Below are positions 6,388 through 50,146 of a stretch of 64,000 nucleotides of DNA, one piece after another; position 1 is the first letter of the stretch; each line of letters starts with the position of its first letter. A program made the position numbers and the translations under genes. Below the pieces are notes generated by a model. It had not been told where the DNA came from. It worked only from the letters and a program-made list of their open reading frames with translations, and made no database searches. Source of the DNA: an uncultured bacterium (GTDB lineage Bacteria; RBG-13-61-14; CAYWKU01); the NCBI GenBank assembly GCA_964459325.1, contig CAYWKU010000007.1, forward strand, positions 83,422 through 147,421. Reading direction: 5' to 3'.

Positions 6388-6444
6388 ATCGTTTGAGTCA
6401 CGGTATTCCCGCATGGGCGTAGCCATGCCCGGGGAAATGGGGGC

Positions 6445-21858: not shown

Positions 21859-24324
21859 TCATTTGTCCGAAAGCCTGAACACTCCGTCCCAGTCAGAGGG
21901 TGGTGGCTTTTCGAGGTAAAGCCGGCATCTTTCGAGGTAAGTGCGACTGGGACCGTCTTCCGGAATAAAGTTCAAAGCCGCTTCGAAACTGGAGATTGCG
22001 TCGCCCCAGTTCATCTTCCGGTAACTTACCACCCCGTCGTTGTAGGCTTTCAGCATCCGCACCCGCTTGCGGCTCAATGAACCTTTCCGGCCCATAAGCT
22101 CATATACCCTTACCGGCCGCTCCTTCCCCGCCACGGCCACCATGTCCAGGAATCTCACCTCGAAATGGTTTTTCACCTGCTTGTAGGTTTCGCGGGCAAT
22201 CATGATGTAGGTTCCGTACTGCTTGTTGGCGCCTTCGAGCCTGCTGGCCAGGTTCACCTCATCGCCCATGATGGTGTAGTTGAGCCTGCCCTCGCTGCCC
22301 ATGTTTCCCACCACCATGGGGCCGGTATTCAGCCCCATCCGGACGCGCATGTTCTTCACCAGGTCGGGCCGGTTACCTTCGCGTCGCCATTTTTCCCGAA
22401 GCGTACTCAGCGCCGCCTGCATCTCCAGGGCCGCGTTACATGCCCGGACGGCGTGGTCCTCAAAACTCAACGGCGCGCCCCAGAATGCCATGATAGCGTC
22501 CCCTTCGTACTTGTCGATGGTGCCGCCGTATTTTTCTATAACCCTGGCCATTGCCGAAAGGTACTCGTTCAATAACCCGACCAGCTGCCCTGCGTCGCCC
22601 AGCTTTTCGCTAATGGTGCTGAACTTTTCGATATCGCTGAAAAAGGCGGTAAGCTCCTTCTCCACTCCCCCGAGTTCCACCAGGGACGGGTCCTTGATAA
22701 TCTCATCCACCACGGTAGGCGCGAGATACTTGCCGAAAGTGTCCTTTATCCACGTCCTCTCGCGCTCGTGCAGTCTGGCCCTGTTGAACAGGCCGCCCGC
22801 ATAAAGGGCAACCACCGCCGACGCCGGAGCGGCTACGGGAATCCACAGACCGCCCCGAACGAAGCCTGCATACGAGCCGATTGCGACAGTCACCAGCAAC
22901 GCCGCCAGTATGGTTGCTCCCGCCGCCAGGGGCGGTCTCCAGAGCATGAATAAAATCATCGAAACCAGCCCCGCCAGAAAAACAATCCCTCCCTCGATAA
23001 TCTCCAGCCGCCATTTCCTTTGGCCGGGCATCTCAGCCATCTCGAGTAGGTCTTTGATTTTATTATCAAGAAACAGGGATAACGGAACGATAAAGTCCTT
23101 CGTGAGTATGGTGTCCAGGGTGTTGGCGTGAATTTCCAGTCCCGGAGTGTATCCCGTTTTTACGCCTTCCGCGGCGGTATCTTGGGAACTTATTTTCTGG
23201 CCGCCGAACGGGGTGGGGTATTCATCGTGGGCCAGTTGGTGAGTGTTTCCCACGAGCGCGATTTTGCCTTCTACTTTTTCGGGGTCGAAATCCCCCTTCA
23301 ATACGTCTCCAAAGGATATTCTCGGGTAAGTATCCCTCCCGCCGCGGTAGTTGATTAATATGTTTCCGTTTACGAGGGGAATTTTCAGCGCGTCCTCGTC
23401 TCCGCCCATTACAAGCTTCCAGTCGGTGCTTTGAATCAACTCTGGATGGGCCGGGTACCTGACCCTGATTGCGGTCTCCAGCGCCAGCGCTGCCCGCTTG
23501 TTCGGGTCTTCGGCCGAGCGCCCCACTATGGCGGGCATGCGCCTGACCCGAGCGTCCGGGTCTTCGATGATATTGACGGCGCCTTCGCCGAGGAGGGAGC
23601 CGAATCTCAACCCTTTAACGGCAACGTACAACTTCGTGCCCGCCGGTACGCCCTGCACGGTGAGCTCGAGGCTATCTTCATCCGCCGCCACGTCCACGTG
23701 ACCGCCCGAACCTTCTCTTACGGCGCCGGTGTCCTTGATGGGATTGAGTGAGTAAAATACCCGAAATCCGTTAATTACCCGACCGGGGCGCGGCTTCCAT
23801 CGGATGTCAGCCACGCCGTTTTCGTCCACCGTCACAATTTTTGAAGCGTCCACGACAGCCTCTTCGGTGACGCAGGGCACTTCGGTGTCCAGAAACATAT
23901 CCCTCGGCCGAACCCATCCGCCCATAGCGATGAAGCTGGAAAGTATCACATTCCCCGCGCAGGCTATTTCCCGGGCCAGTTTTTCATCTCCGGGCTTGGA
24001 AGTAGCGAAGTCCATGTCGAAAACCACCGCCATTGCGCCCGCTTCGTTGAGGGCTTCGAGAACCCGGGCGTGTTCGGCGCGGGTGATGGAGCCGATGGCC
24101 TTATCGAGGGTTTTGCGGGTGGATTCGTCTATGGTTACAAGCAGGACGTCCGAATGCGGAGCTTTTTGGCCCCGGATTAAAAAGCGCAGGTCGTAAGAAA
24201 GGCGCTCGAGGCCGTCGAAAGCGCCGGCGGCTTCCAGCGCGGTTATCGCCACAACGAGGGCAAGCCCCAGCCACAGGCCGGTCAGCCTGCCGGGAGGCTT
24301 CGAGGATTTTCCGGTATCAGCCAC
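21859..24324 (-). CDS. CHASE2 sensor domain-containing adenylate/guanylate cyclase (class III)
   Basis: N-terminal periplasmic CHASE2-like region, transmembrane helices, then cyclase catalytic domain (FFSDIEKFSTISEKL...YEGDAIMAFWGAP...RMGLNTGPMVVGNMGS...YTIMGDEVNLASRLE), C-terminal TPR-like tail. Confidence 0.8.
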   Translation of the reverse strand: MADTGKSSKPPGRLTGLWLGLALVVAITALEAAGAFDGLERLSYDLRFLIRGQKAPHSDVLLVTIDESTRKTLDKAIGSITRAEHARVLEALNEAGAMAVVFDMDFATSKPGDEKLAREIACAGNVILSSFIAMGGWVRPRDMFLDTEVPCVTEEAVVDASKIVTVDENGVADIRWKPRPGRVINGFRVFYSLNPIKDTGAVREGSGGHVDVAADEDSLELTVQGVPAGTKLYVAVKGLRFGSLLGEGAVNIIEDPDARVRRMPAIVGRSAEDPNKRAALALETAIRVRYPAHPELIQSTDWKLVMGGDEDALKIPLVNGNILINYRGGRDTYPRISFGDVLKGDFDPEKVEGKIALVGNTHQLAHDEYPTPFGGQKISSQDTAAEGVKTGYTPGLEIHANTLDTILTKDFIVPLSLFLDNKIKDLLEMAEMPGQRKWRLEIIEGGIVFLAGLVSMILFMLWRPPLAAGATILAALLVTVAIGSYAGFVRGGLWIPVAAPASAVVALYAGGLFNRARLHERERTWIKDTFGKYLAPTVVDEIIKDPSLVELGGVEKELTAFFSDIEKFSTISEKLGDAGQLVGLLNEYLSAMARVIEKYGGTIDKYEGDAIMAFWGAPLSFEDHAVRACNAALEMQAALSTLREKWRREGNRPDLVKNMRVRMGLNTGPMVVGNMGSEGRLNYTIMGDEVNLASRLEGANKQYGTYIMIARETYKQVKNHFEVRFLDMVAVAGKERPVRVYELMGRKGSLSRKRVRMLKAYNDGVVSYRKMNWGDAISSFEAALNFIPEDGPSRTYLERCRLYLEKPPPSDWDGVFRLSDK

Positions 24325-24341
24325 GGCGCCTTTAGAACCGA

Positions 24342-25832
24342 TTAGAAATCACGGTTATTCTTCCACGCCAACCGCCCGCCATCGGGTGGTGAAAGCTTCC
24401 CTTCGGTGGCTCCCACCATGGAGTCCATCAATATAATCACCCTTGCCTCGGCGAGGTAGTTGCTTTGGCGGTTTGTCATCCGGATTAGCCTGGCGACAGG
24501 GTCGGATACGATGATTCGGGCTTTTTTCTCGCCTGCGGAATCGTCGGCTTTGGTCTCCAAAGGCGCCTTACCCTGGCGGAGGGTAACCGTCGCCTCTGCT
24601 CGAAGCAGGAAAATGGGATTGGAAGGCGCGAAAAGGCTCGACCACGCGCCCATGCCCAGCGACGCCACGCGGACTTTCCTTTTTTGCCGCGCGGGGAGGG
24701 CCTTAATCCGCAACGGATTCGGCCCCAGCCGTGCGCCTTCGGGGTTTTTGCTCTTTTCAAGTGCATAAACCGCCGCGCCCCGACGTGAAAGGGCGCCGCC
24801 GGTGACCATTCCGGCGCCGTAAACCACGTTATCGTCCTTGTCGGCGATTACCGGAAACAGGGCGGGGTTAACCCCGGTGCCACGGGCGTCCACCACCAGG
24901 CCTGTGTAGTTTTCGGTTTTCTTTTCTTCCGGTTCTTCCTTCTCCTCCTCTCCCGGTTGAGGTCGAGGTTGCCGTTCTTGAGGTTCAGGAGCGGGCATCT
25001 GCCCGAAAATATCCCTGAACGCAATGGTCACGCCCTTGAGTCCCCACAGTGGCACGCGCACCGTTACATTAAATTCATCCCCTTTTCTCCGAGTATCCAC
25101 CACCTCGGCGCCCTGAACCAGCCCCCGGATGCGGTATTTCCTTTGCTTCTGTTTCTCCAGTATATTATCCATTCCCGAGTCGGGGTCGTAGTTGATGCCC
25201 TTTACGATTTCCATGGCCACGGCATAAGCGTCCACCCTGGCGGCGCGTTTGGCCATTTCTTCCGCATTCGGTTGTTCATTCGGTATTTTTCCCGTCCCCG
25301 TGGCTTCCAGGAACCCCTCCTCCCAGTTCACCTTACCTTTCGGGAAAGGTTGAATCGCCGCGGGGTAGCCTGTAGTTTCATCGGGTGGAGCGGGAGGCAG
25401 CTCCTTTTCGAGACCGGCGGGAATAACCACGTCCGCTTCAATTCTTACCACGTACAAGTCCCCCTGCCGCTCGTCGGTGACAACCTTTACGTTTTTCACC
25501 CTCCCCTGCAAAGTCGCGGTTACAGTGCGGCGTTTTTCGTCGGGAGCGGCCACCAGGTCGACAAACGCGCCCAGGGCCCTTTCCACCGCGTCGCGCTTTG
25601 CGAGGGCAAAAGCGGCCTTGCGGGACAGGCTCTCGCGTTTTCGCTCTATGGGCATTACCGCCGAGCCGGTGGTTCTTACGACGCGGGCGTCCTTTGAAAC
25701 GGCCTGCGCCTCGGCGGTGGAGGCGGTTGTTTCTTCCGACGCGGAAGAGTTGCCTTTATCGGGTGAAGAAACGATATACGCCGGAAAAATCACGACCACA
25801 GCAATTATCAGGCATATTATTTTCGATTTCAT
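24342..25832 (-). CDS. Secreted hypothetical protein with two internally repeated domains (possibly LPP20/FlgT-like)
   Basis: Start chosen at internal Met (MKSKIICLIIAVVVIFPAYIV signal peptide); two related segments (AAFALAKRDAVERALGAF... and AKRAARVDAYAVAMEIVKGI...). Domain identity is uncertain. Confidence 0.45.
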   Translation of the reverse strand: MKSKIICLIIAVVVIFPAYIVSSPDKGNSSASEETTASTAEAQAVSKDARVVRTTGSAVMPIERKRESLSRKAAFALAKRDAVERALGAFVDLVAAPDEKRRTVTATLQGRVKNVKVVTDERQGDLYVVRIEADVVIPAGLEKELPPAPPDETTGYPAAIQPFPKGKVNWEEGFLEATGTGKIPNEQPNAEEMAKRAARVDAYAVAMEIVKGINYDPDSGMDNILEKQKQRKYRIRGLVQGAEVVDTRRKGDEFNVTVRVPLWGLKGVTIAFRDIFGQMPAPEPQERQPRPQPGEEEKEEPEEKKTENYTGLVVDARGTGVNPALFPVIADKDDNVVYGAGMVTGGALSRRGAAVYALEKSKNPEGARLGPNPLRIKALPARQKRKVRVASLGMGAWSSLFAPSNPIFLLRAEATVTLRQGKAPLETKADDSAGEKKARIIVSDPVARLIRMTNRQSNYLAEARVIILMDSMVGATEGKLSPPDGGRLAWKNNRDF

Positions 25833-26002
25833 AATGTCCCCTCGATTTTTAAATGCGGCTGATACGGGTATACCGCTACCCGGGGTACAATTCCCCCTCA
25901 ATTCACCATAAGGACGGGTAAAAGATACCGGCTTTGGAGCATAATTTCAATATTCAGGTGTTAATGTTCTCCGGTGGGTAAATTCAATAGCCAAATGGAA
26001 AA

Positions 26003-27406
26003 TTACGGGCTCGGCTCTGCTTCCTCGTCTTTTTCCGAGAGCTTGCTCTGTTTTCTGTAGAGCGTGCGGCGGTTGATGCCCAGAATTTTGGCCGCCAGCT
26101 CCTTTTTGCCGCCCGTTTTTTTAAGAACTTCCCTGATGTATGTGTCTTCCAGCTCCTCCAGGGTCATGTCTTCGTTGACCGCTTTTTCCACCAGTTTCGG
26201 GGAATCCTCGGACGGCTCGAAAGCCAGCTCATCCGGGCCTATCACATCGGACTGGCAGAGCACCAGCGACCTTTCGATGAGGTTTTCCAGCTCTCTTACG
26301 TTGCCCTGCCAGTCGTGAGTCATCAACTTGGCCATGGCTTCCCGTGAGAGCCTTTTCAAGGAAGTATTCATTTGTTCGGAGTACTTGGTCAAAAAGTGTT
26401 CCGCCAGTAGAGGAATATCCTCCCTTCTTTCCCGAAGCGGAGGCAGGTGAATGGGAATGACGTTGAGCCTGTAATACAGGTCTTCGCGAAAGTTGCCTTT
26501 GGATATTTCTTCCCTCAGATTTTTCTGCGTGGCGGCGATTATCCTGACGTCGATAGTACGCGGCTCGCTGCCGCCCACCGGCCTGACTTCCTTGTCTTCG
26601 ATAACCCTCAGTATCTTCGCCTGCAGCGCCTGCCCCATTTCAGCGATTTCGTCCAGGAACACGGTGCCGTTCTGGGCATCCAGAAGCATTCCCCGGTGGC
26701 TTGCCACGGCGCCGGTGAACGCTCCCTTGACGTGCCCGAAAAGCTCGCTTTCCAGCAGTCCGTCAGGTATGGCGGCGCAGTTTATGGGTATGAACGGTTT
26801 ATCGTTTCGGGGGCCGTTGTAATGCACGGCCTTTGCCACCAGCTCCTTGCCGGTTCCCGATTCGCCGAGCACCAGCACGTTGCTGGATGTGGGCGAGACG
26901 CGGGATATGATTTCGAACACCCTCTTCATCGAAGGGCTTTTGCCTATTATGTTGCCGTAGCGGTACCGCTGGTGAACTTCATTGCGAAGTTGGATATTCT
27001 CGCGCTTGAGCCGGTACAACTGGGCCGCGTTGCGAACCCTGTTCCGTATTTCGTCGTTGTTGGTAAAAGGTTTGCTGAAGAAGTCGTAAGCGCCCTTCCG
27101 CATGGTCTCGACCGCCAGGTCTATCGACCCGAAGGCGGTAATCATGATAACGGCGCTTTCCGGGGATTTTTCGCGGGCGTAGGAAAGAACTTCCATGCCA
27201 TCCACATCGGGCATTTTTATGTCCGCGATAACTACGGGATAACTCTTTTCGGAAATTTTTTCTATTGCCGCACGGCCGCCGGTGACAACTTCCACCTCGT
27301 GCCCGTCCTTTTCGAGGATGTCCTTGAGCAGCGACCCCATTTCAACTTCGTCATCGACGACGAGAACGCTGGCGCTATGCTCCCGGTTATGTGCCTCTTC
27401 TTCCAT
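26003..27406 (-). CDS. Sigma-54-dependent response regulator (NtrC/Fis family: REC + AAA+ sigma-54 activator + HTH)
   Basis: Receiver domain (VLVVDDE...ADIKMPDVDG), Walker A GESGTGKE, GAFTGA sigma-54 interaction motif, C-terminal Fis-type HTH. Confidence 0.9.
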   Translation of the reverse strand: MEEEAHNREHSASVLVVDDEVEMGSLLKDILEKDGHEVEVVTGGRAAIEKISEKSYPVVIADIKMPDVDGMEVLSYAREKSPESAVIMITAFGSIDLAVETMRKGAYDFFSKPFTNNDEIRNRVRNAAQLYRLKRENIQLRNEVHQRYRYGNIIGKSPSMKRVFEIISRVSPTSSNVLVLGESGTGKELVAKAVHYNGPRNDKPFIPINCAAIPDGLLESELFGHVKGAFTGAVASHRGMLLDAQNGTVFLDEIAEMGQALQAKILRVIEDKEVRPVGGSEPRTIDVRIIAATQKNLREEISKGNFREDLYYRLNVIPIHLPPLRERREDIPLLAEHFLTKYSEQMNTSLKRLSREAMAKLMTHDWQGNVRELENLIERSLVLCQSDVIGPDELAFEPSEDSPKLVEKAVNEDMTLEELEDTYIREVLKKTGGKKELAAKILGINRRTLYRKQSKLSEKDEEAEPSP

Positions 27407-27409
27407 TTG

Positions 27410-29695
27410 TCAGGCCGATTTTTCCTCCAGTTTTGTCTGGATAACGGGCATGGTTATATTAAAGCTCGTACCCTTTCCGGAGTCGCTGTGCGCTTCGATA
27501 TTGCCCCCGTGGTCCCGGACTATCTTGGATACTATCGCCAACCCGAGGCCGGTGCCCTGGCCGGAGTCTTTGGTCGAGAAGAAAGGCTCGAATATCCGGG
27601 ACAGGTGTTCCTGCGAAATACCGGCGCCGGTATCCGAAATCGTTACCCGCACGGCATTATGGTCGATGGGCTTCATGTCCAGTCCCAATCTGCCTCCTTC
27701 GGGCATCGCCTGAATGGAGTTGAGGATAAGGTTCAAAAATACCTGCTGGAGCTGGTTATAGTCGGCTTCCACCGGCGGCAGGTCGGGCGACACGCTGAAA
27801 TCCACGTTTACACCGGTCTTTTCGAGCTGAGTTTCCAGGAGGTTCAATACTCCCTCCATCACCTCGGCCATCTCCAGTTTCGCGTAGTGCACCTTCTGGG
27901 GCCTCGAGAACTTGAGCAGGTTGTCGATGAGCTTGGTCATTCTTTCGGTCTGGTGAATGATTATCTGCAGCGATTCCTTCCGGGGGTCGCCTTCCGGCAG
28001 GTCGGAGAGCAGATACTCGGCCCTTCCGGAAACTATGTTGAGCGGAGTTCCCATCTCGTGAGCCAGCCCGGCGGTAAGCTGTCCGATTGCCGCCAGCTTT
28101 TCCGCGTGGATAACCTGTTGCTCCAGCTCCTTTTGTTCGGTAACATCCCGCAGGATGACGCTGTATCCGCGGGCTTTGCCCAGCTTGTCCCTCAGCAGCG
28201 TTATGGTCAGGTTGACCAGCACATTTTCGCCGTCCCGGGTAACCATTTCCGTCTCGTAGTTGGTCATGCTTTCCTTCTTTTCCACTACCCGGGAGATGTG
28301 CCCCACTTCCTCTTCGGCGGTGGAGTTGTCCGGCCACAGCGCATGGAAGGGGCGGTCGAGCACTTCCTTGGGGCGATAGCCGAAGACGTTTTCCGCGCCC
28401 ATGTTCCAGCTTACTATGTGGTAATCCACGTCCAGGCCGATGATGGCGTCGGCGCTTCCGTAAAGGACGGTTTCCAGAAACTCCTTGGTCTGCTCTTCTT
28501 CCGTAACGTCCCGTATGCTGCATATACTCTGCATGGTGCCCGGCACAAGTCCTACTGTGATGCTCGCCCTTCGCTCCTCGCCCTTCTTGTTGACGAAGGT
28601 GAACTCGTAGCTGGAGGGCGCTCCCACCGGGTTTATTCTTCGCCGCTCATGGTAACGCCCCATTCTTTCGCGCTCGGGCTCCGCCACCATCTCGAGAAAA
28701 CTCATCCTGCCTTCTATTTCCTCGCGGGTGAAACCGCTTATCTGGCAAAAGCGGCGGTTGACCCGGGATATGGTCTTGTCCGGCTCCAATACGCATACCG
28801 CGGTTCCGGAGTGCTCAAATAGAATCCTGTAATACTCCTCACTCTGGCGCCTTTCTTCGGCTTCCTGGAACTTGTGGGTAACATCCTGGATAATCTCGAT
28901 TACCTGCTCGACCTGCCCGCTTTCGTTCAATATGGGAAAGGCGGTAACCTCGTAAAACTCCCTGTATCTCCCGCGGGTGGTGGACACCATCCCCCGCTCC
29001 ATCACCCGGTTTCTTATGGCCCACGAGGCGGGGCAGTTTTCGCACACTCCTTCCGGCACTCCTCGAACCTGGCCGCATGTCCAACCCTTCACTTCACCCA
29101 CTTCCCTCACGAAATCCTCCCGCGCGGCGCGGTTGGCCCACAGCACCCTTCTCTTGTTGTCCAGGATTATCAGGTGTATTCCGAGGTTTCCGAGAGCTTT
29201 TCCGGCGCGCTCGACGTCGCTCATGCGGCGCCTCAGATGCCGCAGCTCTTCATTCTGCCGAACGGTTTTGACGGATTCTTCCTTCAGGCGGGCCTGTTCC
29301 AGGCGCGAATGGCTCTTGGCCAGGGCAATTTCAAAGGCCGAGTATATTTCGTCCAGGTCCCTCACCGCCTTGGCCATCGCGGCCCCGTTATCGGAAGCAA
29401 GCTCAAAAATCTGCTCCTGGACGGTTCTTTTACCCAACCGGAACGACTTGATAAGGTCGGGCAGGCGCAAATTCAATCCCACCGCGCGATGGGCCACTTC
29501 TTCCCCATACTCGGAAGCCTCTTCCGACTTGCCTTCCTTAAGCACGCGGACTGCCAGGCCCAATTGGTCCTGGGTTATCTCGTGGAGTTTCTTGCGCGAC
29601 TCGGCGCCGCCTTCTATGCCCTCGCGCGTAAGACCCTTACTCCACCGTTGAGTAATTTTATCCAGCCGCCCTTCAAGTTCTTTATGTAATTCCAT
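27410..29695 (-). CDS. Multi-PAS sensor histidine kinase (HisKA + HATPase_c), apparently cytoplasmic
   Basis: ATG at 29695 (ORF track begins at GTG 29704); H-box LAHEMGTPLN; ATPase G-boxes (DTGAGI, GQGTGLGLAIV); several PAS-like segments; cysteine cluster CGQVRGVPEGVCENC; no clear transmembrane helix. Confidence 0.85.
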   Translation of the reverse strand: MELHKELEGRLDKITQRWSKGLTREGIEGGAESRKKLHEITQDQLGLAVRVLKEGKSEEASEYGEEVAHRAVGLNLRLPDLIKSFRLGKRTVQEQIFELASDNGAAMAKAVRDLDEIYSAFEIALAKSHSRLEQARLKEESVKTVRQNEELRHLRRRMSDVERAGKALGNLGIHLIILDNKRRVLWANRAAREDFVREVGEVKGWTCGQVRGVPEGVCENCPASWAIRNRVMERGMVSTTRGRYREFYEVTAFPILNESGQVEQVIEIIQDVTHKFQEAEERRQSEEYYRILFEHSGTAVCVLEPDKTISRVNRRFCQISGFTREEIEGRMSFLEMVAEPERERMGRYHERRRINPVGAPSSYEFTFVNKKGEERRASITVGLVPGTMQSICSIRDVTEEEQTKEFLETVLYGSADAIIGLDVDYHIVSWNMGAENVFGYRPKEVLDRPFHALWPDNSTAEEEVGHISRVVEKKESMTNYETEMVTRDGENVLVNLTITLLRDKLGKARGYSVILRDVTEQKELEQQVIHAEKLAAIGQLTAGLAHEMGTPLNIVSGRAEYLLSDLPEGDPRKESLQIIIHQTERMTKLIDNLLKFSRPQKVHYAKLEMAEVMEGVLNLLETQLEKTGVNVDFSVSPDLPPVEADYNQLQQVFLNLILNSIQAMPEGGRLGLDMKPIDHNAVRVTISDTGAGISQEHLSRIFEPFFSTKDSGQGTGLGLAIVSKIVRDHGGNIEAHSDSGKGTSFNITMPVIQTKLEEKSA

Positions 29696-29875
29696 ATTCA
29701 CCACTAATTACCTTTTATGTTACATTTTGTCTCAAAATTGGAAAGAGTTCACAATTTTCATGTATAGTTTATCATCCACTGCTAATTATTTCAACGAGAA
29801 TTGGATGATTTTTCGTTGAGGTTCTTAACAATTGTCTCGTAACTACCCGAATGAACAATAGAAATTTGTTTTGAA

Positions 29876-30955
29876 CTATTTTCCCCCACCCAACACAACT
29901 TCTTGGAGGATTGAAGGGTAATGCCATACATCGAACAACACGCTGGCTCCTACGAAGCAGGAGTGAGTACAGGTGCAGCCTTTCCGGGATATACTTTTTC
30001 GGATGCTTTGAGCCTTTTCTCCGCGCCATATCGCGCGAAGATTGTATGATTCCTTCCTTAAGTCCCCCATCGGCTCCTCCAGCTCTTCGCAGGGGTAAAC
30101 CACCCCTTCCGGGTCTATGTAACCCACCACCCGGCCCGCCCTGCATGAGAAACGTTTCCCCTTCATCACCTCCAGCTCCAGCTTTCTGGCCCTGATTTTC
30201 GCACCCCGCAGCCATCTCCGGAAAGGCCCGCGATAAAACGGAAAATTCGACCAGTAAGTCTCAAGTTTCCCGAGCAGGTCCTCATATTCGTCAACCGAAG
30301 GCGGAGCGAGCGCCTTATCGGGAGCTTCTCCCCTGAAGAGCTCGAAGCCGTGAAAATCGGCATCCGGCATTCGAGACAACACAAATTCCATAAGCTTGCT
30401 CATGTTGTCCATGTTTCGATTCATGAGCACAGTGTTGAGGTTCAACGAAAGCCTCGGCTGCTCCCGCTTTTCTTTCGCCAAAACATCATAAGTGTCGAGC
30501 AGCCTATCGAAAGCGCCCTCAACGGCCCTGATTCGGTCGTGAACCTCACCCACCCCGTCAACGGCAAGGCTCACCGCTATCCGGGCTTTCGGGCATAATT
30601 TCAGAGTTTTCCGCACACAGTCCAGCGTTCTCTCCGGGAGCAGCCCGTTTGTGGGTATTGTAATCCGCCGCAATCCGCAATTTTGATAGTAACTCCGAGC
30701 CACCTCGGGCAAATCGTCGCGCATGACCGGTTCCCCGCCGGTAAACAAAAGCCATAACAGCGGCCCGGCGTTTCCGGCAACCAGTCGATGCTCATCGAGC
30801 GACAGCTCTTGGGTCGCCGTGTTGAGTTTCCGGTAGTTGAAGCAGGTTATGCACCGGGCGTTGCACCGCCACGTGGCGCCCAATATCAGGTAAACCGGGG
30901 GCAGGCTTTTCATGCCCAAAAGGTGTCCCGCCCCGACCGCCGCCGGTCTTATCAT
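29876..30955 (-). CDS. Radical SAM protein with C-terminal SPASM-like cysteine-rich domain
   Basis: CX3CX2C motif (CNARCITC) near the N-terminus; C-terminal auxiliary cysteines (FSCRAGR...YPCEELE...GCTCTHSCF); overlaps the upstream GT2 gene by 4 nt. Confidence 0.8.
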   Translation of the reverse strand: MIRPAAVGAGHLLGMKSLPPVYLILGATWRCNARCITCFNYRKLNTATQELSLDEHRLVAGNAGPLLWLLFTGGEPVMRDDLPEVARSYYQNCGLRRITIPTNGLLPERTLDCVRKTLKLCPKARIAVSLAVDGVGEVHDRIRAVEGAFDRLLDTYDVLAKEKREQPRLSLNLNTVLMNRNMDNMSKLMEFVLSRMPDADFHGFELFRGEAPDKALAPPSVDEYEDLLGKLETYWSNFPFYRGPFRRWLRGAKIRARKLELEVMKGKRFSCRAGRVVGYIDPEGVVYPCEELEEPMGDLRKESYNLRAIWRGEKAQSIRKSISRKGCTCTHSCFVGASVLFDVWHYPSILQEVVLGGGK

Positions 30956-31926: not shown

Positions 31927-33333
31927 TCACAGCCTCAGTATCTTCAGCCCCGCGCGCGCCTGCCTGATAACTTCCCCCGGACTACGGATGGTTTTCAGCC
32001 TGCGCAGGATATATGCGGGGTTGCGATAAAAGCTTCGATACGCTCCCAGGGTAAGCTCTATCAACTCCTCCCGGGACAGGTTCTCCTCCCAAACCGGCGC
32101 CTGAAAATCCTCTCGCGGATTGAGGGCGAACTCCAGCCACGGGTCGCCGTTCCACAAACCCTTCTCCTTGCCCATCCGGTAAAGGTCGGTACCCGGAAAC
32201 GGCATAAGCAGCGAAAAATGCACGTAATCCGGCTTGAGCTCCCGAGCCAGCCGTACCGAGCGGCGCACGGTGTCGGAGGTTTCTCCCGGTGAGCCCACCA
32301 GGAAGTACGCCAGAGTGCGTATCCCGGCCTTCCGGGCGTTCTCAAAGCCGGCGCGGGCGTCGTCCACTGTTATTCCTTTCCGGAGGGTTTTCAATATTTC
32401 CGGGTCGCCGGACTCGACGCCCAGGTGTACCCGGTCGCAACCTGCCCTTTTTAGTGCTTCTGCCAACTTGATGTCGAGGTCGGTGACCCGAAGCCTTACG
32501 TCGAAAGTCACTTTCAACCCGCGCGACAATATAAGCTCGGCGATTTGCATGGCCCGCTCGCGGTCGGTGGCGAAATTGTCGTCGTAGAAAAGTATCTCCC
32601 GGATGCCAAGCCGCAGGCATCGCTCCATCTCATCCACCACGCTCTCCGGCGAGCGTGCCCTGAATTTCCTCCCCAAATGAGGCCGGTCGCAGAAAAGGCA
32701 GTTGTAGGGGCAGCCACGGCTGGACATCATGGTGGTAACCGGGTTGGCGCGGGCCAGCACCGAGGTGTAAACCCGAACATCGGTAAGTTCTCTTGCCGGG
32801 AACCGTAGCTCGTTGAGGTCTTCAATAAAGGACGGCGGAGGCCCTCTGTGTATCTCGCCATCCGCACTCCATACCGCCCCGGAAGCCTCATCGGGCCCGA
32901 CATTATTCCGAAGACAATCCACGAGTGCCGGAAGGGCCCTTTCGCCCTCTCCCGTAATCACGTAATCAACTTCCGGCAAAAATGCGGTTTCTTCCGGGTA
33001 GATGTGGGGGTGTGGCCCGCCCAGCACTGTCACCGCTCCGGCTTCTTTAGCCATCTCGCAGACCACCAACACGTCCGGCATGGTGAAGCTGAGCGCGGTA
33101 ACTCCCACGACATCGGGCGCGAAGGATGAGATTTTTTTCCGAATGGTCGCGTCGTCCAGGCCGGGCGCCTGGGCATCCAATATTGCAACCTCGTCCCGCC
33201 CGAGCCGCTCGAGTTCACCGGCCAGGTAAAGCAGGCCTAGCGGCGGATTCGCTCCCCGACCCGATTCGACCTTCTCGGGAAGAATGGACGGTATCATGCG
33301 CCCGGAGGGCGGATGTAGGAGAAGAACTTTCAC
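31927..33333 (-). CDS. B12-binding domain-containing radical SAM enzyme
   Basis: GTG start at 33333 overlapping the upstream stop (GTGA); N-terminal B12-binding-like region (VKVLLLHPP...PLGLLYLAG), radical SAM motif SRGCPYNCLFC. Confidence 0.8.
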   Translation of the reverse strand: MKVLLLHPPSGRMIPSILPEKVESGRGANPPLGLLYLAGELERLGRDEVAILDAQAPGLDDATIRKKISSFAPDVVGVTALSFTMPDVLVVCEMAKEAGAVTVLGGPHPHIYPEETAFLPEVDYVITGEGERALPALVDCLRNNVGPDEASGAVWSADGEIHRGPPPSFIEDLNELRFPARELTDVRVYTSVLARANPVTTMMSSRGCPYNCLFCDRPHLGRKFRARSPESVVDEMERCLRLGIREILFYDDNFATDRERAMQIAELILSRGLKVTFDVRLRVTDLDIKLAEALKRAGCDRVHLGVESGDPEILKTLRKGITVDDARAGFENARKAGIRTLAYFLVGSPGETSDTVRRSVRLARELKPDYVHFSLLMPFPGTDLYRMGKEKGLWNGDPWLEFALNPREDFQAPVWEENLSREELIELTLGAYRSFYRNPAYILRRLKTIRSPGEVIRQARAGLKILRL

Positions 33334-34188: not shown

Positions 34189-36045
34189 CTATTTGCCTCC
34201 GGGGAGCTCGAAACGCGGGTTCTGCCAGAAAAACCGGTCATGGCCCGGGTATTTACGCGGCCCGACCTTAAAGGTTACCGTAGCCTTATTGAAAGATGCC
34301 GGAAGTTTTATCGTTATGGGCGTCGGATGGCAAACCCCTTCACCCGGCACGGCTTCCCCCCGGAAGGTCTCCGACCATTTCCCGGAAGAAAGGTTTACTG
34401 AAAAATCAACGCCGTCCGAAAGTGAAGGGTCGCATGACGAAGGCGCGAGCCGGGCGGCGGTTTTAAATGCCCTTTTGCCGTCCACGTGCATATCGGGGAA
34501 GCGGATGACCGACTCGGCTTTCTTCCTCGAATGATGAAGAATGCCGAACTCCGCCTCGCCGCCGAAATTTATAATCTCTGCGGTCGGGTTTTCCCACCGG
34601 CGGGTGGATTCCGGCGGCAGCTCGGCTTCATTCAGCATGTTCGCCAGAGGCATTGTTTTCGGAGGCCCGCCCCGTAACCACACCTCCGTGCCGTGCAACC
34701 GGTAGGCCGGAAACAGATTTTCGCCGCCGCTTCGCTTATTTATGGCGTCCTTAACGTAACCTACCTCCGGGTGGGATGTATCGAGTATGAATGCGCAAAC
34801 ATTCTCCGAATCTATAAATTCCCCCGGCGGCGGCTCGTTGGCCCCGACCGGGTGGAAGGTCTCGATGCCGTCGTAGTAGCGCAGGTATCCCACCGCTGCC
34901 GAGTTATAGGCTTTGCAATCGTCCTCTATCCTTTCGGAGACCATACGGGTAAGATTATAAAAGAAGGGGCTGCGCTTTTGCATGAAGCGGGCGTCGCTCC
35001 AGGCATAATAAGCGACAATAACAAGAATCAGCGCCCGGATGGCGTTTTTGCGGTACTCGTCCAGTACCGGCAGTCCCATCAGTATCGCGACGGGCGGGGC
35101 GAAGTAAAGCGCCGCCAGCGGATGAGTTTTTACCAGTTGCGGCGCAAGTATCAGGAAAAACAGCGGAATCAGCGCGTAAGCAATGAGCGCCGACGCGCTT
35201 TTCGGCGCCGCCCGCCAGGCCGCCGGGAGCCTGTGGACTCCCACGAAGACCAGCACCCATCCCGGACCGACTCCCACGAAGATGTTCGACAGAAAATCCA
35301 GCCACCCGCCCGGTTTCATGAAAGCCGCCGGGTCGCTGCGGGTTGCCGCGTGGCCCAGCACCGGTATGACCCCCACCACCGACTTCTGCCATATGAACAC
35401 GGCGGCAAGGGTTGCGGCGGCGGCAATGCCCGGCAGGAGGATGAACTTGAGGCTCCGCAGCTTCCTTTCTTCAAAAATCCCCGCCACCAGAACGGCGGGC
35501 AGGGCAAGGTATACCGTCCATTCGTACAACCCGCCGAGGGCTGCGGCGACTGTCATAATCGCCACTCCCTTCCGTGTAACCCGGCGGGTATAGCCGTAAA
35601 TCAACAGCGAGATGAAAAAGAGCGCCCCCGGCTCGTAATTGGTGGTACGCCCCGCCGTTACCGCCATGGTCATCATGGCGAAGAATATCCCCGCCGGAAA
35701 CGCCGCCCGCCGCGTGCCCGCTCTCACAAGTGCGCCCCATAGCAGCAGAGCCGTCCCAGCCCCGAAAAGGGCGCTTACCAGTCGCGAAACCCATTCGTGA
35801 ACGCCGAAAACCGAGTATAGGAAGGCATATACCAACTGAAGCAGTGGCGGATGAGCGGCGTGGTAGAGAAATTCACCCCTGAAAAACCCGAAGCCGGATA
35901 TGCCGCGGGTTACACCGAGGCCGTAAAAAAAATGAGACAGCGCCAGGGACTCCTGGAAAGCGCTGTCCAGCGGCAACACGAACGGGCCGGTCACATTCCA
36001 CAGTCTCAACAGCAGGCAGACCCCGGTAATCAGGAAGGCGCTCAA
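34189..36045 (-). CDS. GT-C fold membrane glycosyltransferase (family 39/83-like, ArnT/PMT-type) with C-terminal soluble domain
   Basis: About 10 predicted transmembrane helices in the first ~400 aa followed by a hydrophilic domain; placed next to an ArnC-like GT2. Confidence 0.6.
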   Translation of the reverse strand: MSAFLITGVCLLLRLWNVTGPFVLPLDSAFQESLALSHFFYGLGVTRGISGFGFFRGEFLYHAAHPPLLQLVYAFLYSVFGVHEWVSRLVSALFGAGTALLLWGALVRAGTRRAAFPAGIFFAMMTMAVTAGRTTNYEPGALFFISLLIYGYTRRVTRKGVAIMTVAAALGGLYEWTVYLALPAVLVAGIFEERKLRSLKFILLPGIAAAATLAAVFIWQKSVVGVIPVLGHAATRSDPAAFMKPGGWLDFLSNIFVGVGPGWVLVFVGVHRLPAAWRAAPKSASALIAYALIPLFFLILAPQLVKTHPLAALYFAPPVAILMGLPVLDEYRKNAIRALILVIVAYYAWSDARFMQKRSPFFYNLTRMVSERIEDDCKAYNSAAVGYLRYYDGIETFHPVGANEPPPGEFIDSENVCAFILDTSHPEVGYVKDAINKRSGGENLFPAYRLHGTEVWLRGGPPKTMPLANMLNEAELPPESTRRWENPTAEIINFGGEAEFGILHHSRKKAESVIRFPDMHVDGKRAFKTAARLAPSSCDPSLSDGVDFSVNLSSGKWSETFRGEAVPGEGVCHPTPITIKLPASFNKATVTFKVGPRKYPGHDRFFWQNPRFELPGGK

Positions 36046-36069: not shown

Positions 36070-36987
36070 TCAATCCTCCTCGAAATATTCCTTCAGGCCT
36101 TCTTTCAAGGGTATCGTGGGCTCCCAGTCCAACTCGTTTTTCGCGCGGGTACAATCCAGTACGTTTTCTTTAACGTCCACAGGTCGGGAAGGTTGATAAT
36201 CAACCCGAGCCCGTATCCCCGAAACCTCCTCCAACAGTCCCACCAGCCTTATCAATGAGGTTCCTTCACCGGCGCCGATGTTGTAAATCGTCGAGGGCGG
36301 GGTGTCGATTATGACTTGCGCGTAAGCCCTTGCCACGTCGATAACGTGAATGTAGTCCCGTGTAATTTCCCCGTCCCCCCATATTGTGATGGTGTCCCCG
36401 CTATTTATGGCCTGTGCGAAGGCGCTTGCGGCTCCCAGCCCCTTACTTGGGTCTTGCCTTATGCCGTAAGGGTTTGAAGCGCGGAGGGCCACCCATTTAA
36501 GACCGTAAAGCTGCCCGCAAAGGGCTAGGTATTTTTCGACAGCCAGTTTATGCATCCCATACGAGCAGACCGGCTCGGTGGGATGATTTTCGACAATAGG
36601 CAATTTTCGCGCCGGGCCGTAGACCGTGCCTCCGCTGGAAGCATAGATTACTTTCTCAACACCCGCCTCGACGGCGGTCTTAAGCATGTTCACCGTTCCG
36701 GCCAGGTTGGTTTGAATGTCGGATACCGGGTCGATGTTGGATGTGGCGGGTATAGTCGAGCATGCCAGATGAACGGCGACGTCCATGCTTTTGAGGGCGC
36801 GAACCATATCGGCGGGGGAAGTGAAATCCCCTTCCATTATCTCGACTTTGCCTTTCAGATGCTCAATGCGCCACGGGTCGGCGTCCGGAAGGTCGAGTAT
36901 CCGCACCTTCACTCCTTCTTCCACCAGAATATCGGCCAGGTGAGAGCCGATAAAACCATATCCCCCCAAAATAAGAACGGAAGTCAT
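36070..36987 (-). CDS. NAD-dependent epimerase/dehydratase (UDP-sugar 4-epimerase-like)
   Basis: ILGGYGFIGSHLADIL Rossmann motif; catalytic YxxxK (CSYGMHKLAVEK). Confidence 0.85.
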   Translation of the reverse strand: MTSVLILGGYGFIGSHLADILVEEGVKVRILDLPDADPWRIEHLKGKVEIMEGDFTSPADMVRALKSMDVAVHLACSTIPATSNIDPVSDIQTNLAGTVNMLKTAVEAGVEKVIYASSGGTVYGPARKLPIVENHPTEPVCSYGMHKLAVEKYLALCGQLYGLKWVALRASNPYGIRQDPSKGLGAASAFAQAINSGDTITIWGDGEITRDYIHVIDVARAYAQVIIDTPPSTIYNIGAGEGTSLIRLVGLLEEVSGIRARVDYQPSRPVDVKENVLDCTRAKNELDWEPTIPLKEGLKEYFEED

Positions 36988-38255
36988 TAAATCCTCCGAT
37001 AAATACTTTCCATCTCGCTCGCGTGCTCTTCCATGCCGGGGACATGCATGGCACCAGGCTCCGGGGTTCCGCCGGTCAGCAGCTTTCGGAGCAGGTTGCT
37101 CAACGCTTCGGGGTCTCTTCTAGGGTAATAAAGACCCGCTTCTCCCGCGACTTCCTTTATTCCGGGCACGTCGGAAGCCACAAGCGCGGTTCGGGTCTCG
37201 AGCGCGTACAGAAGCACCAGCGGGGAGTTTTCTGCCCACAGGCTGGGCGCCGCCAGTATGTCGGTGTTTTCGTATATTCGGGCTATTTGTGTGGGGTCGA
37301 AGGTTTCCCGGTAATTCAGGGCATCGCCCAGAATTGACTTTACCTTGTCCAGGTACGCTTTTTCTTCTTCCGAACCTGTTGCGGCATACACGTTTAGCTC
37401 CCAGTTGCTCAAATCTTTCAATGCGCTCAATGCCTCGGCCAGAACGTGCAGTCCCTTGTGCCGCCTGAACTGGCCGATGAAGGTTATGCGAACCTTGTCG
37501 GAGGAACGTCGCTCAAAGCCCGAAAAAAGCGTTTTATCTATGCCGAAGGGCAGCTTTACGCCTTTCGGCCCCCATTTCGTGTACGGCCCGGCAAGGGCTC
37601 GGGTGGGAAATATAAGCCGGTCGGCCCGTTGAAGCACGCTCCGAAGATATTCAAGACGGTTTCGCATCCGCTTCAGCCCCGGGGATTTCAACTTCTCCAC
37701 CCTCTTTTCGGGTGGAAGCATCCTCAAGAAGGGTCGCTTCCAGCGCGAAATCCCTGCATAAGGGTCTTCGCCCGCAAAGCACGAAGCGCAGCGTATCCCG
37801 GCCATCGGCCCCGGGCATTCTTCGCCTTCCGGCGTGAATAATTGGCCCCATGCGCACATGTAGTGAAAGTCGGTGACGGTTACCACGGTTTTCGCCCCGG
37901 CGGATTCGGCAACCGGAAGCATTCCGGCACTCAAACCTCCCAGCAGGTAAGTGAAATGCGCCACCTCCGGCTCGAATCTGTTCACAACCTCCGCAAATCC
38001 CTCGTCAATCGTCGGGTTGCGGTAATGATGTTCGTAGTCGTTGTGGACGGAATAGGTGTTTCTGATTGTATGCACGGTCACATCGCCGTCGTAACGGGTG
38101 GATATTTCAAACTCCTTTCCCGGAGAATCCGTCCGGGTAAAGATTTCCACTTCATGACCCCTTTTCGCCAACGCTCCCGCCAGCCAGCGCGTATAAGTTT
38201 CTGTTCCCCCGAACTTTTCGGGCGGGTAACCGTGTACGGCGAGCATTACCTTCAA
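36987..38255 (-). CDS. Glycosyltransferase family 4 (GT-B fold)
   Basis: N-terminal MKVMLAVHGYPPEKFGGTETY typical of GT4; C-terminal domain with the conserved E-x7-E region; overlaps neighbours. Confidence 0.75.
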   Translation of the reverse strand: MKVMLAVHGYPPEKFGGTETYTRWLAGALAKRGHEVEIFTRTDSPGKEFEISTRYDGDVTVHTIRNTYSVHNDYEHHYRNPTIDEGFAEVVNRFEPEVAHFTYLLGGLSAGMLPVAESAGAKTVVTVTDFHYMCAWGQLFTPEGEECPGPMAGIRCASCFAGEDPYAGISRWKRPFLRMLPPEKRVEKLKSPGLKRMRNRLEYLRSVLQRADRLIFPTRALAGPYTKWGPKGVKLPFGIDKTLFSGFERRSSDKVRITFIGQFRRHKGLHVLAEALSALKDLSNWELNVYAATGSEEEKAYLDKVKSILGDALNYRETFDPTQIARIYENTDILAAPSLWAENSPLVLLYALETRTALVASDVPGIKEVAGEAGLYYPRRDPEALSNLLRKLLTGGTPEPGAMHVPGMEEHASEMESIYRRI

Positions 38256-39850
38256 CGCCGACCTCCCCGCGATGCTTCGAGCGCCTTACGGGCCTGCATG
38301 ATGGCTCTTCGTATTTGCGCATCGGGCGGGCTCAACCTGGAAGCCTCCTTGAAATTATCCAGCGCCTTTACGAATCTCCCCATCTTCAAATGTGCCAACC
38401 CCGCGTTTTCAAGCGGCTCCGCCCATCCCTGCCTGAGCTCGGAGGCTTTGAGGAAATAAAAAGCAGCGCCCCGGTAATCCTTGAAGCGGAAATGCAGCTT
38501 GCCGAGCGCATTGAAAGCGTTGGCCTGCTCGTAATCGGTAGGAGCGCCTATCTCTACCGCCCGGTTAAGGTGAGGCCAGGCGGAAACGTATCGCAGCTCG
38601 TCCTTGTACGCCAGGCCCAGGTCGTATCGGGCGCGGAACTTATCCGGCGATACCCGGACGCTTCGGCGGTGAACGGTTATCTTTGACGACCAGGTGGAAG
38701 CCACTTCGACGGCAGCCATGAGAAAAAGAGAGCATACCACGACAACTAAGGCAGGCGCCGCCTTTCGCTTGAAGGATGACGCCTCATTCCCGAAAAGCTC
38801 CCCCCCACCGAAAGCGATTATGCCCACTAACCCGACGGCGGGCATGTAAACCCTGTGCAAAAACGCAAGGTCCATGAGGGGAATTACGCCGGATTCCGGC
38901 CCGAGAGCCACCGGCATCCATATCATCAGAAACAGGGCCGGGCGGTTTTTGCGCAGCTTGTACGTCAAAATCCCCCAAACCGCTATTAACCCAACGCCCG
39001 AGATAATTACTTTCGCATCGAGCAGGCTTGTCCTCAGCACGGGATTCTGCTCAAGGGCCAAGCCCGTCGGCCACAGGAATTTTGCGATGTATCCCGGTAT
39101 GACTGTCAATTGGGTAAGGAAATACTCGTAAGCGCCGGGCAACTCCGATGAAGGGCCGAGGTACACCAGATGCCCCGAGCGCAAGACGGCGTAAATTACG
39201 AAAATTCCTCCCGCCGGAAGAACGGCTTTTATTCTTTCCCGTCCCTTCCCGTACAGAAAAGCGAGCACACATACCATTATCGGCGCCACCGCGCCGCTTT
39301 CCTTGCTCAATAGAGCGCCTACGCAAGCCAGCATCGAAATCCATAAGTACAGGTTCCTCCCCTTCCGGAGGTGCTCCAGGTATGCCAGCGCAGCTCCCAC
39401 CGTGAACATGGTGGCCAGCACCGCCGACCGGGCGGATATGTAAAACACTGAAAAGTTGATAAGCGGATTGAGGCAGAAAATCGCACTCGCCGCCAGCGCG
39501 ATTGCATCCGGGTTTTCGCGTTCGGCGAAAAGCGCCCTTACCAAGAGGAAAACCAGCAGCGAGGTTATCACGTGAAGCACGCCGTTTACCGCCTCGAAAG
39601 CCGGCGCATCGAAACCCGCGGCCTGAACGTTGGACCAGTTAAGAAGAACGGTTATCGCCCGGAAAGGACTTTGCAAAATAACGGAAACCGGAGAGCCCAC
39701 CAGCGCGGCGTTTTCGAGTATGGAAGGGTGGTCGTCCAGCACGAAAACGCCGCCCGATGCCAGGTGCACTATAAGGCCCGCAACCAGGGCGGCCAAAAGC
39801 GCGAGGTATGCAAATTTATCCCGAGGCGTCCTCACCGGCGCTTCCCGCAC
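38252..39850 (-). CDS. Polytopic membrane protein with C-terminal TPR repeats (TMTC/DUF1736-like, GT-C-type)
   Basis: About 10 N-terminal transmembrane helices followed by TPR-like repeats (YDLGLAYKDELRY, AFNALGKLHFRFKDYRGAAFYFLKASEL, ENAGLAHLKMGRFVKALDNFKEA). Confidence 0.6.
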   Translation of the reverse strand: MREAPVRTPRDKFAYLALLAALVAGLIVHLASGGVFVLDDHPSILENAALVGSPVSVILQSPFRAITVLLNWSNVQAAGFDAPAFEAVNGVLHVITSLLVFLLVRALFAERENPDAIALAASAIFCLNPLINFSVFYISARSAVLATMFTVGAALAYLEHLRKGRNLYLWISMLACVGALLSKESGAVAPIMVCVLAFLYGKGRERIKAVLPAGGIFVIYAVLRSGHLVYLGPSSELPGAYEYFLTQLTVIPGYIAKFLWPTGLALEQNPVLRTSLLDAKVIISGVGLIAVWGILTYKLRKNRPALFLMIWMPVALGPESGVIPLMDLAFLHRVYMPAVGLVGIIAFGGGELFGNEASSFKRKAAPALVVVVCSLFLMAAVEVASTWSSKITVHRRSVRVSPDKFRARYDLGLAYKDELRYVSAWPHLNRAVEIGAPTDYEQANAFNALGKLHFRFKDYRGAAFYFLKASELRQGWAEPLENAGLAHLKMGRFVKALDNFKEASRLSPPDAQIRRAIMQARKALEASRGGRR

Positions 39851-40181
39851 TTTTTTCGGCTTCCAATATGGCGATTGTCTGTGACAGGGATTTTACCTGG
39901 TCGGTCATCCGGGACATCCGCACCGAGAAGTGAATGTTAATTAACGCGAGGAACAACAGGGCAAACAGAAAAACGGTGGTGGAACTGGAGACCGCGCCTA
40001 TCAGGTGAGTCAGCCAGACCTGAAGGTCGTACCATGCGGCCAGCACAATTACGCCCGCTCCCACCGCCAGCCACAGTATGCTGAACTCCTCCTTCAGCTT
40101 CCTCCGGCGCACCAGCTCGACAATAGCCACCAGCAGCATCACTGCTACCGCCAGCGCAAATATCCTTTGTCTGGGCGTCAT
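39816..40181 (-). CDS. Small membrane protein, DUF2304-like (commonly paired with polyprenyl-phosphate GT2 genes)
   Basis: Start taken at internal Met (MTPRQRIFALAVAVMLLVAIV); 2-3 transmembrane helices; immediately downstream of an ArnC-like GT2. Confidence 0.5.
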   Translation of the reverse strand: MTPRQRIFALAVAVMLLVAIVELVRRRKLKEEFSILWLAVGAGVIVLAAWYDLQVWLTHLIGAVSSSTTVFLFALLFLALINIHFSVRMSRMTDQVKSLSQTIAILEAEKSAGSAGEDASG

Positions 40182-40194
40182 ATTCCACCTCCTT

Positions 40195-43059: not shown

Positions 43060-43065
43060 GCGAGT

Positions 43066-43719: not shown

Positions 43720-43743
43720 TCACCCCGCGTTTTAAACATACTA

Positions 43744-48046: not shown

Positions 48047-48051
48047 CTTTT

Positions 48052-48942: not shown

Positions 48943-48988
48943 GGCCTGTTCCAGGAGGTTCGGTTTGCCGGTAGCTTCCTCGCTCAAT

Positions 48989-50140: not shown

Positions 50141-50146
50141 GGCTTA

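Follow-up and report, generated by a model that had tools for sequence, protein, structure and literature searches.

Radical S-adenosylmethionine (SAM) enzymes with a SPASM or twitch domain are usually annotated as peptide maturases. The canonical SPASM domain holds seven cysteines (CX9-15GX4C...CX2CX5CX3C...C) and two auxiliary clusters, and the twitch domain is a truncated SPASM domain with about four cysteine ligands and a single auxiliary cluster. Among the twitch enzymes, BtrN, BlsE and SpeY are known biochemically to act on sugars. Polyprenyl-phosphate sugars are tailored and then transferred by GT-C glycosyltransferases in the ArnC/ArnD/ArnT and DprE1/DprE2–Emb/Aft systems. For radical SAM enzymes that act on lipid-bound sugars there are genetic examples, namely HpnJ (hopanoid cyclitol ether) and Cds (calditol synthase) (PMC13459092, PMC9092360, PMC9385802). 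The radical SAM gene examined here lies in a 64,000-nt stretch of DNA (the window) from an uncultured bacterium (contig CAYWKU010000007.1, positions 83,422 to 147,421), directly downstream of a gene for a family 2 glycosyltransferase (GT2), termed GT2c. From sequence comparisons, the radical SAM protein is probably a carbohydrate- or glycolipid-tailoring enzyme and the dedicated partner of this membrane GT2, a reading to which a probability of roughly 60% is given.

The partnership was examined across genomes. A scan of one genome per species gave 557 relatives of the radical SAM protein, from which 80 loci were retained; adjacency was counted in the 65 of them flanked on each side by 1.1 kb or more of sequence, and hidden Markov models (HMMs) of the neighbours were run on all open reading frames (ORFs). 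A GT2c-type gene was found directly adjacent to the radical SAM gene (300 nt or less) in 60 of these 65 loci, from several phyla, and no more than 6 kb away in 63. A close ortholog (60% identity) was present in only one GTDB species representative, the others being 32–39% identical. The bacterial carriers belong to the Acidobacteriota (mainly Thermoanaerobaculia), Nitrospirota, Actinomycetota, Rokubacteria, Thermodesulfobacteriota, and Fibrobacteres, and the archaeal carriers to the Methanosarcinales and Nanoarchaeia/Woesearchaeota. The identities that GT2c and the radical SAM protein show to their window copies are correlated (Spearman 0.63, n = 31). In the Acidobacteriota and Nitrospirota, the pair is surrounded by housekeeping genes (thrA/B/C-like, dapB, obg, and methylmalonyl-CoA mutase), so that the minimal unit is the GT2c–radical SAM pair itself. 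One locus (L008, 10001..13467) carries a 38%-identical homologue with no GT2c neighbour, followed by a family 4 glycosyltransferase (GT4) and a second radical SAM-SPASM protein of 308 aa.

In some organisms the two proteins are joined in a single polypeptide. A profile search of 1.84 billion cluster representatives returned 2813 representatives of the radical SAM family (E ≤ 1e-30), and 1026 homologues were returned by one other search, the closest at 76, 62, 61, and 60% identity; the window ORF is therefore a real gene that is under selection and not a chance reading frame. Of the 150 best among the 2813 representatives, 8 are fusions of a GT2, transmembrane segments, and a radical SAM domain, 618–699 aa long with the radical SAM domain in the C-terminal half. 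Pfam finds an N-terminal GT2 domain in all eight, the GT2c HMM scores seven of these N termini at 168–238 bits and the eighth at 87 bits, and hydrophobic segments lie between the domains in seven. The same 150 proteins include one fusion in the reverse order (radical SAM–GT2) and one of radical SAM with a WecG/TagA (GT26) domain (fusion proteins, all from other organisms: P0240, P0258, P0272, P0282, P0338, P0361, P0377, P0383, P0372, and P0324). Natural fusions of this kind are strong evidence that both parts serve one shared pathway, probably as a complex. Because the radical SAM gene adjoins, or is fused to, one type of GT2 in many phyla, its product most likely modifies a sugar or glycolipid and not a peptide. 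Co-occurrence with the GT2 in other genomes, which the first-pass annotation of this window had named as a check, thus turned out to be the rule.

At the junction of the two window genes (Table 1), 4 nt (ATGA) are shared, so that the TGA stop codon of GT2c overlaps the ATG start codon of the radical SAM gene (...AGGAGGCCGCGATGATAAGA...; in a longer reading, AGGAGGCCGCGATGATAAG). A Shine-Dalgarno sequence, GGAGG, is located 5 nt before this ATG. The radical SAM gene is translationally coupled to GT2c, and the 4-nt overlap with a GT2 gene was correctly described at first pass, the upstream gene being a GT2 by Pfam (Glycos_transf_2, 40.3 bits; Glyco_trans_2_3, 35 bits). The best NCBIfam match of GT2c is MftF, at 67.6 bits against a cutoff of 280; no sequence match was found in the PDB, and none of 117 homologues carried an informative name. 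The GT2c family keeps D79-D80-D81 and E178-D179 (the DxD and ED motifs), and in place of the QxxRW of processive synthases GT2c has QRYRL (family consensus QRFxLR). On the strength of these motifs and of the predicted structure (pLDDT 94.5), GT2c resembles a synthase-type GT2 that is small, inverting, and embedded in the membrane, a minimal relative of the hyaluronan and cellulose synthases.

The radical SAM protein has two Pfam domains, Radical_SAM (residues 30–192, 40.8 bits against a cutoff of 29.5) and SPASM (residues 271–330, 33.0 bits against 21.5). In an alignment with 39 homologues (31–75% identity), the cluster motif CX3CX2C (C31/C35/C38), the SAM-binding GGE motif (G73-G74-E75), and C271, C289, C329, and C333 are invariant, and C327 is conserved in nearly all. 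With CX3CX2C, GGE, and PF04055 above its gathering score, the protein belongs to the radical SAM superfamily. Exactly five cysteines (C271, C289, C327, C329, and C333) follow residue 260 in the window protein; the seven-cysteine SPASM motif does not fit, the CX2CX5C triad being absent. In the AlphaFold2 model (pLDDT 94.8, pTM 0.92) taken with the alignment, the C271...C289 stretch lies on short strands (E277-280 and E285-287) and is followed by C327-X-C329-X3-C333. As there are five C-terminal cysteines and not seven, one auxiliary cluster is expected and the domain is twitch-like; at the level of sequence and model the protein has the features of a twitch enzyme, and its best matches, SkfB and BlsE, are twitch enzymes. 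Its fold class is predicted to be SPASM/twitch, with a truncated, twitch-like SPASM domain holding cysteines enough for one putative auxiliary Fe-S cluster. The label "SPASM-type" given at first pass therefore holds for the Pfam domains and has to be narrowed to twitch-like on account of the cysteines.

The radical SAM protein falls outside every curated family tested and is uncharacterised. Its best NCBIfam matches were AhbD (82.7 bits against a cutoff of 500), AhbC (67.7 against 650), and NirJ2 (67.6 against 500), and lower scores were obtained for HpnH (45.7 against 225), ScmE (45.7 against 400), StsB (44.5 against 625), PqqE (42.5 against 381), MftC (42 against 265), Tes (41.2 against 450), PapB (39.7 against 340), and BlsE (36.3 against 400). 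No curated score was reached for the sugar-acting enzymes BlsE, BtrN, and DesII, for the lipid enzymes HpnH and Tes, or for the maturases of RiPPs, peptides that are made on the ribosome and modified after translation (PqqE, MftC, StsB, PapB, and ScmE). That AhbD, AhbC, and NirJ2 head the list would fit a tetrapyrrole or cofactor enzyme of the AhbD/AhbC/NirJ type lying beside glycosylation genes by chance. However, the equivalog cutoffs of 500–650 exceed these scores 6- to 10-fold, Pfam scans of the window found no heme biosynthesis genes, and adjacency and fusion to a GT2 across phyla are not a coincidence, which leaves this explanation scarcely credible.

It is also unlikely that the radical SAM enzyme modifies the lipid part of the GT2 acceptor or product, acting on C–C bonds in a polyprenyl or membrane-lipid chain in the manner of Tes or GDGT-MAS. 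GDGT-MAS does appear among the structural matches given below, but the scores for lipid families are far below their cutoffs, no hydrophobic segment was found in the radical SAM protein, and the fusions with GT2 and WecG/TagA point to sugar chemistry. Tes-type enzymes, moreover, carry a full SPASM domain with two auxiliary clusters (PMC13459092). Membership of a defence system was considered and rejected, since PADLOC gave the radical SAM core only a generic viperin-like match (35 bits) and the GT2s none. Conflict systems with radical SAM enzymes need vWA-MoxR genes and peptides (PMC7159879); these are absent here, and this candidate was rejected as well.

Comparison with known structures did not separate the substrate classes. 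When the single sequence was searched against the PDB, BlsE was the best match (E 2e-6), followed by GDGT-MAS, SkfB, PqqE, and MoaA, whereas a family profile placed SkfB first (68 bits), followed by MoaA, CteB, GDGT-MAS, and anSME. Foldseek returned the same set, with TM-scores of about 0.6, and BlsE and DesII rank high in both fold searches; the standing of these two sugar-acting enzymes speaks for the sugar-tailoring reading. Two points here count against a sugar-tailoring enzyme: the top structural and profile match, SkfB, is a peptide enzyme, and peptide- and sugar-acting relatives score about equally, so that the fold leaves the substrate class undecided. A third is that no other sugar genes accompany the pair in the Acidobacteriota and Nitrospirota, and the polyprenyl-phosphate/GT-C part of the pathway proposed below may therefore be lineage-specific.

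SPASM and twitch enzymes are best known from RiPP pathways, and with SkfB and CteB among the top fold and profile matches, a RiPP maturase had to be weighed, with its precursor peptide overlooked or encoded away from the locus. In the model, the radical SAM core is preceded by some 20 residues, and Pfam finds nothing beyond the Radical_SAM and SPASM domains, so that there is no room for a peptide-recognition (RRE) or PqqD-like domain. The first-pass annotation had noted no obvious precursor-peptide ORF nearby, and this was upheld: across 5 orthologous loci the downstream spacer shares no ORF of at least 15 aa, on the upstream side the neighbouring gene overlaps, and no conserved small ORF was found next to the pair in the 80 loci. 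PqqD matches were absent from neighbouring genes in scans of the window and of the orthologous block loci, and no peptidase, transporter, or PqqD gene was found in any locus examined. The only conserved neighbours are glycosyltransferases and a second type of radical SAM enzyme with a B12-binding domain (B12 radical SAM). A RiPP maturase is accordingly highly improbable.

A protein maturase, which would modify the GT2 itself or a protein glycosylated by a PMT_2 enzyme much as anSME matures sulfatases, is a rather better candidate yet still distinctly unlikely. anSME is among the profile matches to the PDB, but it has two auxiliary clusters and is absent from the 25 best NCBIfam matches of the radical SAM protein; no sulfatase gene was found in the locus or in the related loci examined, nor was any conserved protein partner besides the GT2, and such a reaction has no known precedent. 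Thus neither RiPP machinery nearby nor an unrelated housekeeping maturase was found, and no RiPP, sulfatase, PQQ, mycofactocin, or heme family reached its curated cutoff. The non-peptide substrate proposed at first pass gains support, at the sequence level, from GT2c adjacency, the fusions, and the missing peptide features; of the protein or glycan target offered with it, a sugar or glycolipid is favoured and a protein is less likely.

In the window, the pair closes a block of 11 tightly packed, co-directional genes (Table 1, listed outward from the radical SAM gene), in the order GT4, GT2, DUF2304, TPR/PMT_2, GT4, epimerase, PMT_2, GT2, B12 radical SAM, GT2c, and radical SAM. The block is conserved in five distinct homologous loci, with radical SAM identities of 76, 60, 53, and 51% in the other contigs. 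The gene on the 3' side varies among these loci, being a histidine kinase, an enoyl-CoA hydratase, or a 231-aa protein with no assignment; the conserved unit therefore ends with the radical SAM gene, in agreement with the first-pass description of this gene as the last of a glycosyltransferase operon. No convincing terminator was seen in a scan directly 3' of it, counts being no higher than in shuffled sequence, and the whole window gave no match to a riboswitch or any other RNA family in Rfam.

Table 1. Coordinates of the features in the window, with the basis of each assignment.
Feature	Coordinates	Strand	Basis or remark
Radical SAM with truncated SPASM (twitch-like) domain, 359 aa, ATG start	29876..30955	-	Pfam and motifs
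GT2c, 323 aa, GT-A domain and predicted C-terminal transmembrane helices	30952..31923	-	Pfam, model
B12-binding-domain radical SAM, 468 aa by ortholog gene calls	31927..33333	-	longest ORF to 33450
Polyprenyl-phosphate sugar synthase-like GT2, 285 aa	33330..34187	-	NCBIfam AglJ, PpgS, ArnC-type matches
GT-C membrane glycosyltransferase (PMT_2)	34189..36045	-	Pfam PMT_2 39.5 bits; kept in block
NAD-dependent sugar epimerase/dehydratase	36070..36987	-	Pfam Epimerase 165 bits; GalE-like, 154 bits
GT4 glycosyltransferase	36987..38255	-	Pfam Glyco_trans_1_4, Glyco_transf_4
Membrane protein, PMT_2-like N terminus, C-terminal TPR	38252..39850	-	Pfam TPR; PMT_2 25.6 bits against cutoff 26.1
Small three-transmembrane protein, DUF2304 by orthology	39816..40220	-	three hydrophobic segments
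Second polyprenyl-phosphate sugar synthase-like GT2, about 230 aa	40195..40887	-	Pfam GT2 86 bits; orthologs 230–236 aa
GT4, first gene of the 11-gene block	40884..42101	-	Pfam, synteny
AT-rich spacer ending the block, 171 nt, 29% GC	29705..29875	.	no conserved small ORF
Promoter-like site within the spacer, 3' of the radical SAM gene	29794..29766	-	
Further co-directional glycosylation genes	42088..56317	-	Pfam scans
B12-domain radical SAM paralogs	31927..33333, 53279..54667, 54803..56317, 58902..60269, 60378..61937	all -	Pfam, BLAST
Low-GC region	54000..62000		GC 0.45–0.49
PMT_2 gene inside the low-GC region	56826..58589	opposite	
PAS histidine kinase	27410..29704	-	
Sigma-54-dependent response regulator	26003..27406	-	
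Gene set 3' of the block, syntenic in closest relatives	21859..29704	-	
TldD	16442..17869	-	
Predicted secreted protein, 834 aa	6445..8949	-	by eye

Several genes of the block give the pair its sugar context. The 285-aa GT2 matches ArnC (70.7 bits), DPMS, and GtrB by sequence in the PDB and is therefore of the polyprenyl-phosphate sugar synthase type. The B12 radical SAM protein, whose gene lies two genes upstream of the radical SAM gene and was not remarked on at first pass, scores 86.5 bits for B12-binding and 110.6 bits for Radical_SAM in Pfam and carries a CPYNCLFC motif; its NCBIfam matches to BchE and HpnJ (172 bits each) are both below cutoff, and its best PDB match is AprD4, a sugar diol-dehydratase (125 bits). 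A sugar context for the pair is drawn from the ArnC/DPMS-like GT2, the PMT_2 GT-C, and the epimerase in the block, and from AprD4 as the best relative of the B12 partner. The assignment of the small membrane protein to DUF2304 comes from the position-equivalent gene in L002, L004, L006, and L007, which is PF10066.

The B12 partner is found less widely than GT2c. In 15 of the 65 loci, a B12 radical SAM gene lies no more than 2.5 kb from the radical SAM gene; these 15 comprise all 4 from the Actinomycetota, 4 of 5 from the archaea, the window clade, and some Nitrospirota. Copies of the 285-aa GT2, 42–45% identical, occur alongside the radical SAM gene in archaeal loci, and a Methanosarcinales locus contains both this GT2 (42% identity) and the B12 radical SAM (47% identity) besides the pair, so that a four-gene module travels together. 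In the actinomycete locus L057, the order is B12 radical SAM, GT2c, radical SAM, and PMT_2. Beside this cassette, the actinomycete metagenome-assembled genome encodes a second B12 radical SAM, a corrinoid protein (B12-binding and B12-binding_2), and a URO-D/MtaA-like methyltransferase (L057, 12788..16001), with a RACo-type reductive activator upstream (5755..7023); together these suggest a dedicated corrinoid methyl-transfer system near the cassette.

If the pair does tailor a carbohydrate, a route can be outlined. GT2c would use a nucleotide sugar as donor and pass its sugar on to a membrane-bound acceptor at the cytoplasmic face. The radical SAM enzyme would cleave SAM to give a 5'-deoxyadenosyl radical, which would abstract hydrogen from a C–H bond of the sugar, either on the nucleotide-sugar donor of GT2c or on its lipid-linked product, and the auxiliary cluster may handle the second electron. 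The outcome could be any one of oxidation, epimerisation, deoxygenation, decarboxylation, or ring contraction, as for sugar-acting radical SAM enzymes. In the window, the B12 radical SAM would serve as a second, co-tailoring enzyme, and the product may enter a pathway of polyprenyl-phosphate sugars and GT-C (PMT_2) transferases, by which an envelope component beyond the cytoplasmic membrane is decorated.

Glycosylation genes continue upstream of the block in the same direction, and the region encodes two LPG_synthase_TM proteins, a dTMP-kinase-like protein, two GT4s, a SAM methyltransferase, two GT2s, a PMT_2 protein, a 748-aa multi-pass membrane protein with no Pfam match, and two more B12 radical SAM proteins. 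No Wzx, Wzy, Wza, or initiating phosphoglycosyltransferase was seen among the ORFs scanned. Five B12-domain radical SAM paralogs occur in one 30-kb stretch and are mutually 22–34% identical where BLAST detects similarity. CX3CX2C is present in four of the five; the paralog at 58902..60269, which matches only that at 54803..56317 by BLAST, has a B12-binding domain, no cluster motif, and no Radical_SAM match in Pfam, and may therefore be inactive or a pseudo-enzyme. Three of the paralogs lie in a region with a GC content well below that of the rest (about 0.57 elsewhere), which also holds a PMT_2 gene on the opposite strand and may be an addition to the glycosylation locus gained by horizontal transfer. 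Taken as a whole, the locus of about 26 kb, with five B12-domain paralogs and several GT-Cs, suggests extensive radical tailoring of polyprenyl-phosphate-linked sugars, of which we know no description.

On the 3' side of the block, the PAS histidine kinase and sigma-54-dependent response regulator genes belong to a set that also encodes a lipoprotein (with a faint FlgT_N match) and a CHASE2-adenylate/guanylate cyclase, and multiheme cytochrome genes are found 3' in orthologous contigs. The 834-aa predicted secreted protein has, by eye, a clostripain-like "DGDNDL" N-terminal region and C-terminal repeats resembling a beta-helix. TldD has only about ten relatives above 64% identity, and its named matches at ~60% mix Nitrospirae, Deltaproteobacteria, and Betaproteobacteria.

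A full-text literature search found no description of the GT2–radical SAM pair or of GT2–radical SAM fusions. Radical SAM enzymes acting on carbohydrates are of a known kind; what is new, as far as can be told, is how broad this family is and how nearly constantly it is partnered with, or fused to, a synthase-like GT2. We tentatively propose that the GT2 and the twitch radical SAM enzyme could form an unrecognised, widespread two-enzyme module whose product, held on a lipid or a membrane-bound carrier, is a radical-remodelled sugar (for instance carbocyclic, branched, deoxy, or epimerised). If this is true, Nitrospirota, Acidobacteriota, Actinomycetota, several archaea, and the window lineage would possess an envelope glycoconjugate of a new class, and the fusions would be the first bifunctional glycosyltransferase–radical SAM enzymes. 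Since a family of ~2,800 representatives is tied to one type of membrane GT, annotation pipelines should not call its members RiPP enzymes. The two-gene unit, above all as single-polypeptide fusions, offers a compact, expressible system for new radical sugar chemistry, and the pair could lead to a new glycolipid or glycan of the envelope in groups that matter in the environment and are mostly uncultured (such as Nitrospirota, Thermoanaerobaculia, and Methanosarcinales).

Compared with described systems, the radical SAM protein is only 18–19% identical to SkfB, the twitch sactisynthase of the sporulation killing factor (PDB 6efn). SkfB has an N-terminal peptide-binding extension and adjoins its precursor gene, whereas the window protein has neither and is paired or, in other organisms, fused with a GT2. 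BlsE (cytosylglucuronate decarboxylase), DesII, BtrN, and SpeY belong to antibiotic pathways and act on soluble substrates; to our knowledge, none of the four pairs or fuses with a membrane GT2. Mycofactocin biosynthesis (MftC/MftF) likewise combines a SPASM-family radical SAM enzyme and a GT2 in one pathway, but MftC acts on a peptide before the glycosyltransferase acts, scores are far below cutoff (MftF 67.6 against 280, MftC 42 against 265), and mftA, mftB, mftD, and mftE are absent.

In layout the window resembles the ArnC/ArnD/ArnT and DprE/Emb systems, as it also holds ArnC/DPMS-like GT2s, small membrane proteins that may act as flippases, and PMT_2 GT-Cs, with tailoring genes between them; the difference is that the tailoring enzymes are radical SAM proteins and not a deformylase or flavin/NAD oxidoreductases. 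The hopanoid enzymes HpnH/I/J themselves were rejected as an explanation, all scores being far below cutoff: the radical SAM protein reaches only 46 bits for HpnH against 225, and the B12-domain neighbour, at 172 bits against a cutoff of 578, is not HpnJ. Neither squalene-hopene cyclase (shc) nor other hpn genes occur in the window. The proposed pair shares its logic with HpnI/HpnJ and Cds, in which a glycosyltransferase adds a hexose to a membrane lipid and a radical SAM enzyme then remodels the lipid-bound sugar.

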